From NCBI GenBank assembly GCA_039621445.1, contig CP154954.1, forward strand, positions 6,893,425 to 6,957,424: DNA of 64,000 bases. Reading direction: 5' to 3'. Below are positions 596-63,836 of this stretch, piece by piece. Origin of the DNA: Euglena gracilis (Eukaryota). Every line of letters starts with the position of its first letter. Within the stretch, counting starts at the first letter, position 1. The translations under genes were made by a program, and so were the position numbers. The notes under the pieces were generated by a model that did no database searches, was not told the origin of the DNA, and saw only the letters and a program-made list of their open reading frames with translations.

Positions 596-3500
596 CAACA
601 CATCCTGGCGAAGTACTCGGTGATCGCCTGGGATTATGGCCCCACTCAGGCAGTTTACACCCCTAATTGTGATGCAATTTGAATTTGAAAGAATACATTA
701 TTTTAACCCATATTTTGGCGCATTACTAATGTATTGCGTTTTTGCAATGCGTAACTTTGTTCTACAACATCTAGCTGGTTTGTATGGCGTTACTCAATGG
801 GTTAGCTACAGGGTTTTTTTCAGGACATTTCTACAGGGTTCGCCTCCCCTGAACCTCCGACCCACCCCCTTTGAAGCAGGTAATGCGTAAAGCCGTGAAA
901 ACACGTTATAAATATTAATCGAAAGGCGGACACTAAAACCTACGTTGTCGAGAAAAAAATATATAGAACCAGATTTCTGCTCCACTTATCGGATTTTTTT
1001 CATGTTCTGTTTATCCCCTTTCGTTGTTTTTCTTTTTAAAAAAATCGAAATCCATTTTTGGGATGGTCTTTCAAGTCGAAGAAGCAAGCTCCTGTAGAAC
1101 GTTGGCCCCCACGCCTGCTCCCATCACGTGCAAGCTGTTCCCCCTGTGCGGCCTTGAGCAGCCATCCATCGACCCCAACTCTGGAGAGGCTGTCAAAACT
1201 GCCATCGATTGTATGTGCGCCGGGGCTCGGATCCCTGCCCAGGCCTGCAAAGCCATCCGGCTCTCCGTCTGTTCCTGACTGCCTGAGCCTGAGCCCATAC
1301 CTCAAAATTGATGATTTAAAATGCACACTTGGACTGGGGGGCATTGCATGACTGTACCAAATATGTATGTATTCTGTGTGGCAGCCGTAAAGTGCCAAAC
1401 AAAACGAAAAATAATCCGATACCCAGAGTACGGTGCATCTGGGAAAGTCAACCCCCCCCCTTCCCACTGGAAAACTACCTGGCCCCCATGGGGGGCCCAA
1501 TTGTTCACACTTTTTTTACCCCCCCCCCAATGTCCAACGACCCCCTATGTCCAATGACCACCCCCCCCCCCGGTCAGAGGACACCTTTTCGGAGGTTTGA
1601 CCAAATTTTTGGTCCCGGCGTGAAGCGCCGGGACGAAAAACTTTGCCCAAAAATTGGCCAAACATTTGGCCAAAATGCCATTTTTGACACTTTTTGGACA
1701 AAAATTTGTCAAAATTGCCCAAAATTTTCGGCGCAAAGCGCCGGAAGGTAAAATTTGGGCATTTGGGCATTTTTGGGTGGGTTGGGACCCGGGTACCCAC
1801 CAACTTTCTTTTGACCCCATGTCCAATGACCACCCCCCCCCCCGGTCAGAGGACACCTTTTTGGTCACTACCCTATGTCCAACGACCCCCCCCCCGGTCA
1901 GAGGACAGAGGTTACCGGTCATTGGACATAGGGGGGGGTATCTTTTAACCCTTGAGAATCGTACACAACTTCTGAACTTTGGAAGAACTTTGGAAGTCCC
2001 ACGGTGTTCGGCGGTCTATCTCTGGCTGGCCTGCTCTGTCACAAATTGCCTGAAACTGGTGGACAACCGAGTACCTCGAGAAGTGGAGCAGGTGCCGTGG
2101 TCCCCCAGGAGGCCTTGTCTTTCCTTTGCTGTTGGATCCTGATGAGTTTTTTGATCGTTGCATGGTTTCAAGAGGTCTCAAAACGAATTTTCCTCTGGAG
2201 TTTTTCCCCTATGTCCAACGAATATCCCGCCCCCAGGTCGAAGGATTATTCGGCATTTTGGAAAGTCCGCAGGAGTGTTTCTTTGTACCAAACAAAAAAA
2301 ACCTCTGTAACGACAGGCCCCCAGCCGGAGGACAGCGACCTCCCCCTGTTGGCGTACAGATGTTGTTAAAACTGGTTGTTGGATATAGGCAGGGGATAAG
2401 CCCCCACCCCCAAATAACCCCTAGGGCATTATTTTTCTGCTCGAAGTCCAGGGATGGGAGGTATAGCACAGAAATATTATTGCGACTTTTTTTTGGGATG
2501 CAGTAAAAAGTTTTCTTCCAGCCCTGTGCCCTGGGGAGTGCATAAACAATGCCATTTTCCTTTAGTTTTAAGCATATTATTCAGCATGGTTTTTTCCTCG
2601 TGAAAAAAATTTCGTCCCCGTCTCTGCGAAACCAAAAATTTTGTCTGTGTAGGTCGCAACAAGTCCAAAAACCCCTCCTTTTGGTGTTGTTTTGGGGGGT
2701 TGTGGCTCCGATCCTGATGTCGGAATATTTTGGGGGGGTTGTTTTTGGGGGGGTATATTTGGGGGGAGGGTTTACCCACATTGAGTTTGTTTTTCTATTT
2801 TTTCTGTTTTTTTTTCAAAATGGCACTGAGAGTTTCAACCCAGAGATCGCTTTCGATATTTCCTGCCACAGCTCGGTGCAATTGTTCATATGTATTTATA
2901 CGAACAATTGCACCTCTCCTTTTCTGAGGGAAAAGGAGAGGTGTTCATTATCTCCTTTTTTTGAGGGAAAAAGTGGAAATTATGCCAAAAACGGTCACAG
3001 TCGCAGTGCTGGCCAGTACGTCCCCAGGATATTATGTCCAATTTATTTGCTGAGGTCAGGTTGGAAGGATCCTACATTTTTTACTGGATATGAATGACGC
3101 AGTTGATAGATATTTTGCATGCCAATTTCTGTTGCACATTAAACTCAACTTGAGTTTTCAACTTAAGATCGAAAAAAATTGGAAATACTTTTTGTTCTGT
3201 TTTCCATCTTGAAAGTTGGAAACCGAATGGTTGTCATGTTTGCCAACTAAAGTTGCTAGCTGATAAACCACACATGTGATTTCTCATTTTGGGGAGATAT
3301 CCTCCCAGGCAAATTTTTATGTGGAATATATTTCTGTGTCGGGTATTGTGCATATTCTTTTAGCCTTATCCATGTGTGCCTGGTGGGAGTGTGTTGATGG
3401 GCCAGTGCAGCATGGCGCCGCCCTTGGGCACCACGCGCCACGCCTGGACCTCATCGTCAGCGCGGAGGTGCGGCAGGTGCTGGACAAGAAGTGGGACGCG

Positions 3501-62700: not shown

Positions 62701-63836
62701 GTGAAACTTTCGGTGTGGTTTTTTTTTGCGTCGCTAAGCCTGAAATTCCATCATTTTTTGGGTTAACCGTTTTTTTTTTCCCTGGAATTGGTCCATGCTT
62801 CGTGTCATGTTAAGATGAAGATTTGATTTCTTTTGGGAAGTCATCTCGGTCATCTCGGTCGCGAAAATTCGCGGATTCAAGAATTTGCGTTGTTTTTCAG
62901 CACGCTATTGGGATATTGCGTGGTTTCATGGGAGAAGTTTTTCACCATTCAGATTTTTTGCATCTCGTGCGCAGATAATCCCCTTTGATCGTTGATGTTT
63001 GATGTTTTTTTGTGTGTTGGATGTCTCGTTACTTTTGCAGAGTTTTCAACCAATCCAAACCCCGATTTTGTGCTTCTGTGAATTAAACCCCCCTATTTGT
63101 AAACCCCCCACTTAACCCCCCCCCCTCTGGCCGACCAACCAAACCTTGCATTTTAAACCCCATGCTGGGGAAGAAAAAGTAAAACCACCGGGAATTTGTT
63201 TTCAGCCACAATCCACCCAAAAACTGGCTTTTTGGCAACTTTTTGAGACCGACCATCATCAATAAACAGCCATTTTTTGACCAAATTTGCCAAAAAAAAT
63301 TGCCCATTTCGGGCGTTTTGTGGTTATTTTGGGCCATCATTGAATTGTTGATTTATAAACCCCAGATGTTTTGAGTTGGCATGTTGCGTTATGGCACAAA
63401 ATTTTATTTTATTAATGCTGGTGGCTTCTAAGGCAAGAGCAGCGTCCATAAAACCGAGGTGTTCTGCAAACCTGCACCCCCCATTGTCTGAAAAAGTGTA
63501 TGGCGGTGTTTGCCCCTGTGAATGCTGTTCCCTAACCCTAACCCTTTTCTTTACCCTAACCCTAATTTTAATCCTCACCGGTGTTTAAATTTTGGCAATA
63601 TGCTAATCTATTGATCACTCGGACGAACAATTTTTGAATTGTCAAGGTTTTGAGTATCTTTCAGTGCTCGGTCTCAGCTGCCCCAATTGTTCCCGCAGCA
63701 TCACATGTTGAAACGTCCTGGGTGTATGTGCTGACATGCTCACCCCCCCCCAGCCCCAGGCTGCCTTGGGAGCAACACCCTGGAGTCTTGGGCGCCCATT
63801 CAAATTCTCATGGTGGTGGACGGCTTGCTGTTCCCC
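59762..63836 (+). CDS. MGST3: MAPEG/MGST3-like copy 2 (tandem paralog; last exon beyond the window)
   Basis: Exons 59762-59826 ([22 protein letters not shown]), 60518-60590 ([24 protein letters not shown]), 61536-61589 ([18 protein letters not shown]), 63774-63836 ([21 protein letters not shown]). Exon lengths 65+73=138, 54 and 63 nt match copy 1 exactly. Confidence 0.92.
60681..61220. repeat. (TA)/(TG)/(TATATG)n low-complexity satellite in an MGST3 copy 2 intron
   Basis: Directly visible; a similar block lies at ~22738-22910. Confidence 0.95.

Follow-up and report, generated by a model that had tools for sequence, protein, structure and literature searches.

Euglenid nonconventional (NC) introns are the closest described system for the locus examined here (Milanowski et al. 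2014/2016; Nomura et al. 2025). Both lack GT-AG borders, pair positions +4 to +6 with positions -8 to -6, mostly as CAG/CTG, extend the helix beyond this core, have mostly slidable junctions and share genes with conventional introns. The cis-code of NC introns has already been dissected by knock-in mutagenesis, giving a strict code (N3-CDG/CH'G-N5-6|R) that fits 61.2% of them genome-wide (PMC12501133). Diplonemid noncanonical introns also share non-GT-AG borders and strong end pairing with the present set, but the account of them, as excerpted, reports no CAG/CTG core at a fixed distance (PMC12621601), whereas the fixed register found here is that of euglenids.

We analysed a single window (the whole stretch of DNA, 64 kb), for which an earlier note had listed 18 gaps without GT-AG borders as NC introns across "all five genes". 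We put at roughly 85% the probability that most of these gaps are genuine NC introns of the described kind, in nuclear DNA of a euglenid-type organism, a host type read from the kind of intron and the C-rich acceptor tracts. They are ordinary examples of a class already known, with no difference of kind from it, and the finding itself is not new, since earlier publications cover terminal pairing, the Y|R rule, compensatory changes, mutagenesis and circular products alike. The count of genes was inexact, as at least six or seven coding loci were found.

Terminal pairing and assignment to the NC class

All 18 triplet pairs were re-read, and in each one +4..+6 pairs with -8..-6 exactly as listed. 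The cores comprise ten CAG/CTG, one CTG/CAG, two CAC/GTG, one CAA/TTG, one CAT/GTG, two CAG/TTG and one GGG/CCT, with one G.U pair needed in four of the 18 (CAT/GTG, both CAG/TTG and GGG/CCT). The description of the junctions as mostly Y|R at both ends also held (16/18 at the 5' end, 18/18 at the 3' end), and the first base of the downstream exon is a purine in all cases. Register, Y|R and downstream purine are those of the published model as given in PMC4770533 and PMC12501133, which supports the assignment to the NC class, and collinearity with homologues and paralogues backs it at five junction pairs. The strict code fits 11/18 introns, close to the genome-wide share reported in PMC12501133, and the 7/18 cores outside it resemble the remaining 38.8% in that report.

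GT/GC-AG borders are absent from all 18 gaps, also when the boundaries are slid to any other position that yields an identical mRNA. This argues against the view that a standard U2-type spliceosome removes these introns at degenerate splice sites, as happens in some tunicates, with the helices merely bringing the sites together. Such a reading can draw on the coexistence of NC and GT-AG introns in one gene here and on a published statement that spliceosome independence still awaits experimental proof (BMC Genomics 2024), but the code defined by mutagenesis (PMC12501133) is unrelated to U1/U2AF recognition and circular products are reported in the literature, and we consider it very unlikely.

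Running inward, the terminal helix averages 6.39 bp (n = 18) compared to 3.85 bp for random pairs having the core, a mean reached in 37 of 20000 resamples, and more than three contiguous pairs are present in 17/18 introns, although these pairing statistics are partly circular because the boundaries had been picked by the same motif. Among length-matched random pairs, 6.6% show the 3-bp core. The pairing is specific to its register, as shifting the 3' end by 1–6 nt leaves 0–3 of the 18 paired. Mean 10+U7+10 end-pairing energy is -7.1 kcal/mol for the 18 introns and -1.95 kcal/mol for 3000 random pairs; it is zero in none of the listed introns versus 32% of random pairs, and two GT-AG introns tested gave -0.7 and -1.3. 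Of the 15 claimed introns no longer than 1400 nt, 12 form the core in the whole-intron MFE structure; neither of two GT-AG introns tested does. Strand asymmetry was considered as a control and rejected, because a CAG...CTG helix reads identically on both strands.

About 1500–10500 in-frame, stop-free alternatives exist per junction, of which 0–20 fit the strict code, and 5–54 in-frame GY..AG alternatives lie within 45 nt per intron. The filter yields none for 22165–23159, since the test window for this intron takes in the stop codon of the preceding one. With thousands of in-frame alternatives per junction, the motif alone is weak proof of any single boundary, and motif-based calling of NC introns should be regarded as ambiguous without RNA or homologues. 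As strict-code matches arise by chance at roughly 1 per 500–1500 in-frame alternatives, we see about even odds that between two and four of the 18 listed boundaries match the motif only by chance, with the true joins elsewhere or no intron at all; 27875–28296, 45406–45723, 37852–38108 and 14870–15261 are the ones in question. A codon-usage model built from about 800 codons can tell known exons and introns apart, but it is noisy (388 plus-strand segments exceed 0.6 bits/codon) and was used only as weak support.

Judged by collinearity of the predicted exons, five of the 18 introns appear confirmed to the codon or nucleotide (22165–23159, 54112–54442, 54506–55855, 60591–61535 and 61590–63773), two appear approximately supported (20999–21681 and 24189–26457) and one is apparently contradicted. 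The seven introns of a TRPV-like channel gene and 644–1122 are plausible.

Phosphatase, channel and isolated candidates

NC and GT-AG introns stand side by side in a histidine phosphatase gene at 20.9–28.4 kb:

20999–21681, plus strand: claimed NC intron, CAG/CTG, 8-bp helix; approximately supported by a homologue
21808–22111, plus strand: conventional GT-AG intron (GTGTGG ... TCTTCTCAG), absent from the earlier list
22165–23159, plus strand: claimed NC intron, CAT/GTG, outside the strict code; boundaries confirmed by predicted collinearity
23306–23619, plus strand: conventional GT-AG intron, absent from the earlier list
24189–26457, plus strand: claimed NC intron, CAC/GTG, outside the strict code, 10-bp helix; approximately supported by a homologue
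26618–27751, plus strand: conventional GT-AG intron, absent from the earlier list
27875–28296, plus strand: claimed NC intron, CAG/CTG, strict code; doubtful

The junction 22164|23160 is not slidable and gives ..ERPFDP|PLTIAG.., without a gap relative to homologues P0002 and P0003, and its intron has an 11-bp helix. For 20999–21681, none of 4511 alternatives has a helix as long, and the N-terminal membrane anchor and linker are roughly collinear with P0003. Likewise, none of 1896 alternatives matches the helix of 24189–26457, and the peptides flanking this intron match P0003 with a length difference of two residues. The three conventional introns are of the U2 type and lie in the same gene as these NC introns. 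Their joins (RHGERE|DD across 21808–22111, that across 23306–23619, and ..AACVG|NLLPPG.. across 26618–27751) are collinear with P0003, and each has a C/T-rich tract before its AG (C-rich in 26618–27751). Unlike the listed NC introns, 21808–22111 and 23306–23619 lack terminal pairing. A further intron, located somewhere within about 23697–24130, has dozens of in-frame GT/GC-AG and helix-bearing candidates.

The least secure member of this gene is 27875–28296. Its flanking frames are both fixed by homology. The join inserts 31 residues without counterpart in P0003, codon scores are low on both sides and the MFE structure lacks the terminal helix, and these three points favour a chance match. The replacement we considered, 27835–28352, is collinear but has neither GT-AG borders nor an NC signature, and decisive structure is found in neither version. 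In exon-level Pfam searches (E up to 10), the sole addition was a weak His_Phos_1 match.

Upstream, an unnamed gene and the TRPV-like channel gene contain eight of the listed gaps:

644–1122, plus strand: claimed NC intron, CAG/CTG, strict code, 5-bp helix; final intron of an unnamed gene that ends at 1275
6078–13114, plus strand: claimed 7-kb NC intron of the channel gene, CAG/CTG, 6-bp helix
13197–13521, plus strand: claimed NC intron of the channel gene, CAG/CTG, 4-bp helix
13580–14751, plus strand: claimed NC intron of the channel gene, CTG/CAG (permitted by the published code), 9-bp helix
14870–15261, plus strand: claimed NC intron of the channel gene, CAG/TTG (G.U); weakest of the channel set
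15365–16601, plus strand: claimed NC intron of the channel gene, CAG/CTG
16722–16971, plus strand: claimed NC intron of the channel gene, CAG/CTG, 5-bp helix
17013–17159, plus strand: claimed NC intron of the channel gene, CAG/CTG, 6-bp helix

The core is present in the MFE structures of 644–1122, 13197–13521, 13580–14751, 16722–16971 and 17013–17159. Although it has no homologue for comparison, 644–1122 is a plausible NC intron. The Pfam Ion_trans match and PDB matches to the TRPV S6 segment (E 2.7e-8) start at 16603, the first full codon past the claimed 3' boundary of 15365–16601. The exons flanking 13197–13521 receive coding scores in the frame claimed for them under a codon model trained without the channel gene, no in-frame alternative to 13580–14751 (0/3273) has an equally long helix, and the frame stays open after splicing of 6078–13114. 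Microsatellites and a 959-aa minus-strand ORF lie inside this 7-kb intron. PDB searches with the single short exons 15264–15362, 14752–14868 and 13117–13194 (E up to 10) and a protein word-index search with a channel exon gave no match.

A chance match is again a concern for 14870–15261, whose uninterrupted core is just 3 bp; the MFE structure lacks this core, 521 of 7810 alternatives equal it by run length and one other strict-code alternative is equally good. Against this, the core is followed by one mismatch and then 6 bp, so that the helix covers ten positions. The same question arises for two isolated candidates:

37852–38108, plus strand: claimed NC intron, CAA/TTG, 8-bp helix
45406–45723, plus strand: claimed NC intron, CAG/CTG, 8-bp helix

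The flanks of 37852–38108 gave no Pfam or homologue match, and those of 45406–45723 showed no coding signal on either side in the codon model and no Pfam match. In favour of genuine introns, both helices form in the MFE structure and only three alternatives to each have a helix as long. The first of the two sits in an AT-rich repeat region.

Tandem MAPEG paralogues and compensatory change

Two MAPEG copies, A and B, form a tandem pair whose exon borders are identical to the nucleotide, while their introns are dissimilar except for short terminal motifs:

53364–54057, plus strand: copy A, NC intron missed in the earlier note, CAT/ATG, 4-nt 3' spacer
54112–54442, plus strand: copy A, claimed NC intron, CAG/CTG; boundaries confirmed by predicted exon similarity
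54506–55855, plus strand: copy A, claimed NC intron, GGG/CCT (G at +4); boundaries confirmed by paralogue and MGST2 alignment of the predicted exons
59828–60518, plus strand: copy B, extra non-GT-AG intron missed in the earlier note
60591–61535, plus strand: copy B, claimed NC intron, CAC/GTG; boundaries confirmed by predicted paralogue exon alignments
61590–63773, plus strand: copy B, claimed NC intron, CAG/TTG; boundaries confirmed by predicted paralogue exon alignments
63837–64000, plus strand: copy B, start of the next intron, which runs past the window end, with G at +4 as in copy A

In copy A, the exons 53277–53363 and 54058–54111, aligned with copy B, bound the missed intron, which has a 9-bp terminal helix. 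At 54112–54442, which is not slidable, exon similarity between the copies ends at both boundaries, and the join restores the MAPEG motif of MGST2 chain 6ssr_A. The 5' boundary of 54506–55855 is fixed by paralogue alignment and its 3' boundary to within one residue by MGST2 alignment; the Pfam MAPEG match begins at or adjoining 55856, and the 21-residue middle exon fits the MGST2 alignment to within one residue. In copy B, exon 63774–63836 is homologous to 54443–54505, and its reading frame stops six codons on. A PDB search with exon 54040–54111 (E up to 10) and protein word-index searches with a MAPEG exon and a MAPEG ORF returned no match.

Two introns depart from the euglenid register, 53364–54057 with its 4-nt 3' spacer and 59828–60518, which has 3/7-nt spacers. 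The latter occurs at a site where copy A reads straight through; its borders show a direct repeat of 5 nt, and its ends form an imperfect 13-nt helix (duplex -17.3 kcal/mol). Such an intron is what would be expected if the stems were mainly terminal inverted repeats of MITE-like transposons inserted in exons and the code a trace left by the original element instead of a signal under selection, an idea raised in PMC4770533 and PMC12501133. Terminal inverted repeats, short direct repeats at the borders and one presence/absence difference between tandem paralogues are indeed shared with MITE- or introner-like introns. However, a multi-copy element family is not seen, as only internal fragments of the introns match elsewhere in the 64-kb window; compensatory changes between paralogous introns indicate selection on pairing, and synthetic introns made from the code alone are spliced (PMC12501133). 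We regard this explanation as unlikely. A MITE origin and a present function are not mutually exclusive.

The earlier note had proposed that cut sites are set by structure and register instead of by sequence. This is overstated, because compensatory change cannot be read from a comparison of unrelated introns. True compensatory changes were seen only in the paralogous pair 53364–54057 and 60591–61535 (CAT/ATG versus CAC/GTG), which differ by two compensatory pairs, T-A to C-G at +6 and G-C to A-T at +8. In addition, knock-in mutagenesis found sequence constraints beyond pairing; among the complementary changes tried at the middle position, CTG-CAG alone was still spliced (PMC12501133). Still, the paralogue-verified NC introns break the C-D-G/C-H'-G code at outer positions supposed to be fixed while keeping the helix. 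The third intron has G rather than C at +4 in both copies, and the core of 61590–63773 differs from that of copy A by a single C-to-T change, giving a G.U pair. Provided that these introns are spliced efficiently, the machinery might measure helix geometry and tolerate any base pair at +6/-8; we hold this tentatively, as somewhat improbable. If true, the code would be broader than that derived from single-site mutants.

Excision and use of the gene models

Substrates of the tRNA splicing endonuclease have a fixed bulge-helix-bulge geometry. In the 18 introns the helix starts 3 nt inside the 5' border, and the other strand ends 5 nt before the 3' border. Following the literature, a helix cored by CAG/CTG would be read by a machinery that is probably not the spliceosome, cuts would be made at fixed distances from the helix, the exons would be joined and the intron would be freed as a circle. 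We would favour a structure-measuring endonuclease with a ligase over snRNA-guided catalysis. The analogy with bulge-helix-bulge tRNA introns (PMC3935182) lies in cuts set by distance from a helix and in possible circular products; the NC helices differ in varying from 3 to 11 bp and in that their 3-nt and 5-nt spacers both lie on one side of a single helix. The checks proposed in the earlier note are already in the literature, namely RNA mapping that presupposes no splice motif, mutagenesis of the stem using synthetic introns, and the excised introns as circles.

Wider searches added little. The window had no Rfam match at the gathering threshold, Pfam gave no match on 84 minus-strand ORFs of at least 110 aa, and a metagenome scan with P0001 returned only one unrelated 25-residue match (L001).

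Beyond annotation the window matters little, as it contributes about 20 further members to a class of which hundreds of thousands are already on record, and it does not advance the question of the machinery that removes these introns. Its use lies in corrected gene models for the TRPV-like channel, the histidine phosphatase and the two tandem MAPEG genes. For work on broadening the code it also offers a small natural panel, in which tandem paralogues show compensatory changes in the core, an intermediate with a G.U pair, a spacer of reduced length and the gain or loss of an intron.

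Terminal pairing and border rules of the 18 introns

Re-reading the window at all 18 coordinate pairs that the earlier note had listed as nonconventional (NC) introns (644..63773) reproduced the core triplets it gave in 18/18 cases: CAG/CTG in ten, CAC/GTG and CAG/TTG in two each, and CTG/CAG, CAA/TTG, CAT/GTG and GGG/CCT in one each. The pairing of +4..+6 with -8..-6 that it described was present in every intron (through one G.U pair in 4/18), and its "mostly Y|R at both ends" corresponds to pyrimidine|purine at 16/18 5' junctions (upstream exon|intron) and 18/18 3' junctions (intron end|next exon). 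As it had also stated, GT-AG borders are lacking: GT/GC...AG was found in 0/18, even over all slides that yield an identical mRNA. Junctions can be slid by 1–4 nt in 16/18, only 22165-23159 and 54112-54442 being fixed. Of the 18, 11 (61%) fit the strict published code (C-D-G/C-H'-G core with set spacers and a downstream purine), compared with 61.2% of NC introns in PMC12501133.

A 3-bp core occurs in 6.6% of random pairs of equal lengths, and this and the following pairing statistics are partly circular, as the motif had guided the choice of boundaries. The inward helix averaged 6.39 contiguous pairs in the claimed introns versus 3.85 in core-bearing random pairs (matched or exceeded in 37/20000 resamples), and with 3' ends displaced by 1–6 nt only 0–3 of the 18 stayed paired. 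Using an end-pairing energy metric after PMC11170887 (10 nt + U7 + 10 nt), we obtained a mean of -7.1 kcal/mol at the claimed ends versus -1.95 over 3000 random pairs (Mann-Whitney p 6.7e-10), with zero energy in 0/18 versus 32%; two GT-AG introns tested gave -0.7 and -1.3. Whole-intron folds contained the core in 12/15 claimed introns of <=1400 nt (absent from 14870-15261, 27875-28296 and 54506-55855) and in neither of these GT-AG introns. Enumeration yielded about 1500–10500 in-frame, stop-free alternatives per junction, with 0–20 strict-code matches among them, and a further 5–54 in-frame GY..AG alternatives <=45 nt away. Where the claimed intron itself fits the strict code (11 cases), its helix is longer than that of every strict-code alternative. 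The motif pattern by itself cannot establish any particular boundary.

Paralogous introns in tandem MAPEG genes

The last four listed introns fall in two + strand genes, not one: a tandem pair of MAPEG (microsomal glutathione transferase-like) paralogues, copy A (53226-56029) and copy B (59762-64000), which have three intron positions in common:

53226-53363, 54058-54111, 54443-54505, 55856-56029, + strand: copy A exons
59762-59827, 60519-60590, 61536-61589, 63774-63836, + strand: copy B exons; the gene continues beyond the window end
53364-54057, + strand: copy A NC intron outside the original list, from paralogue alignment; CAT/ATG core, 9-bp terminal helix, 4-nt 3' spacer
59828-60518, + strand: extra intron in copy B only, from paralogue comparison; no GT-AG

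In pairwise alignments of the copies, coding similarity ends at the claimed borders, which leads us to regard 54112-54442, 60591-61535, 61590-63773 and the 5' border of 54506-55855 as confirmed at the sequence level. Conservation inside these introns is restricted to short terminal motifs. The 3' border of 54506-55855 agrees with MGST2 (6ssr_A) to one residue; the match to Pfam MAPEG begins at 55856 or adjoining it.

The earlier note had read compensatory change from unrelated introns, whose differences are not compensatory; the claim has to be judged on introns that are homologous, and here it held for one pair. CATGGG pairs with CCCATG in 53364-54057, and CACGA with TCGTG in its homologue 60591-61535 (3' spacer 5 nt), so that T-A is replaced by C-G at +6 and G-C by A-T at +8, with both sides altered in each pair and +4, +5 and +7 identical. 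The cores of 54112-54442 and 61590-63773 differ by a single C-to-T change giving a G.U pair, and both copies have G at +4 of their third intron. These comparisons show what we read as selection on the pairing between the MAPEG paralogues.

The copy B intron 59828-60518 looks like a gain or loss since the MAPEG duplication. Its borders carry a 5-nt direct repeat, its ends form a 13-nt imperfect terminal inverted repeat and its spacers are 3 and 7 nt long; it is possibly transposon-like, as would suit an origin of the stems from transposons, an explanation compatible with either route of removal considered below.

Evidence for the other genes

With 23161-23640 as query, a full HMMER search returned the homologues P0002 and P0003, the latter a histidine phosphatase of 270 residues that has an N-terminal membrane anchor; mapping both onto the window placed the gene at 20.9-28.4 kb, with the following introns:

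22165-23159, + strand: NC intron, CAT/GTG, 11-bp helix, non-slidable
24189-26457, + strand: NC intron, CAC/GTG, 10-bp helix, homologue fit with a two-residue length difference
21808-22111, + strand: conventional GT-AG intron
23306-23619, + strand: conventional GT-AG intron
26618-27751, + strand: conventional GT-AG intron

The GT-AG introns, outside the original list and placed by homologue mapping, have a C/T-rich tract upstream of the AG and are interspersed with NC introns. The join 22164|23160 (..ERPFDP|PLTIAG..) is gap-free against both P0002 and P0003, and we take 22165-23159 to be confirmed by this fit. Homology supports 24189-26457 apart from the length difference, and 20999-21681 only roughly. 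P0003 calls for one more intron at about 23697-24130, where there are many in-frame candidates of both types. For 27875-28296, homology sets both flanking frames, yet the join inserts 31 residues not in P0003, which score poorly in the codon model; the terminal helix did not form in the whole-intron fold, and the collinear alternative 27835-28352 had no recognisable splice signal. This NC intron is doubtful. A public 96-aa protein, P0001, is 94% identical to the read-through frame 23158-23445, across the exon into the GT-AG intron, so public data include a second, slightly diverged genomic copy of this locus.

In the TRPV-like gene that holds seven listed introns (6078..17159), the S6/TRP-box region of TRPV channels is recognisable in exon 16603-16719 (best E 2.7e-8), as are Pfam Ion_trans positions 213-240, the match beginning with the first codon past the claimed 3' border. 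With this gene excluded from its training, a codon model, though noisy, gave 8/8 channel exons a coding score in the claimed frame alone of the three. As the model is noisy and single-exon PDB searches with channel exons 13117-13194, 14752-14868 and 15264-15362 gave no match at E up to 10, we consider these seven introns plausible. The strongest codon-model peak upstream, 3399-3593, is probably an additional 5' exon, and the gene would therefore have more introns than listed. Inside intron 6078-13114, a 959-residue minus-strand frame (10171-13047), partly translated microsatellites (RE and Q runs) and without a Pfam match, could represent an antisense gene nested in the intron, or merely a GC-rich open frame; its valine/proline-rich part (about 12247-12510) recalls articulin or inner-membrane-complex repeats (best Atlas score 0.78, a lead only). 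Word-index protein searches with channel and MAPEG queries gave no match.

The flanks of 644-1122 are coding-like in the codon model. Those of 37852-38108 (8-bp helix) score weakly and had no Pfam or homologue match, and for 45406-45723 (8-bp helix) Pfam and the codon model gave no gene evidence. Downstream, a weak rhodopsin-family 7TM Pfam match (47234-47515, + strand, E 2.9e-4, under the gathering score) may point to a further gene on the + strand. Introns also contain long microsatellites ((CT)110, 12778-12997; (GCT)36, 10941-11047; (TATATG)74, 60683-61126; TA-rich array, 22737-22907), and fragments 82–88% identical are dispersed in introns and intergenic DNA (6328-6630/33053-33366, 24553-24674/58699-58821, 16222-16324/39528-39633); no whole intron was among the repeats found in the window. 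Overall, five of the 18 introns are confirmed, two roughly supported, eight plausible, two without gene evidence and one doubtful.

Relation to the published code and mode of removal

We compared these introns with relevant portions of PMC12501133, PMC11170887, PMC6221363, PMC3935182, PMC4770533 and PMC12621601. The +4,5,6/-8,7,6 pairing (mainly CAG/CTG), the pyrimidine/purine rules for both junctions and many compensatory changes between homologous introns are described in PMC4770533, and bear out the assignment to euglenid NC introns. NC introns account for 71.8% of the introns of Euglena agilis; knock-in mutagenesis and fully synthetic introns established the code 5'-N3CDG-/-CH'GN5-6|R, with a 5' spacer of fixed length and a 3' spacer allowing +1 and, to some extent, -1. 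When the middle position was changed to other complementary pairs, CTG-CAG alone kept splicing (PMC12501133). Excised introns as circles are cited in PMC12501133 and PMC12621601. Since the pairing, junction rules, compensatory change, code and circles are all published, the list is a correct recognition of a system already known.

The window shows the geometry, with a helix, spacers of 3 and 5 nt and a purine at the start of the next exon, as well as selection on pairing between the paralogues. The earlier view that structure and register, not sequence, define the cut sites is partly supported; irrelevance of sequence goes beyond the published tests. Dependence of splicing on core and spacers comes from PMC12501133, and NC and GT-AG introns occur together in the histidine phosphatase gene. 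We infer that a protein endonuclease and ligase would measure the cut sites from the helix; removal by the spliceosome is a minor alternative.
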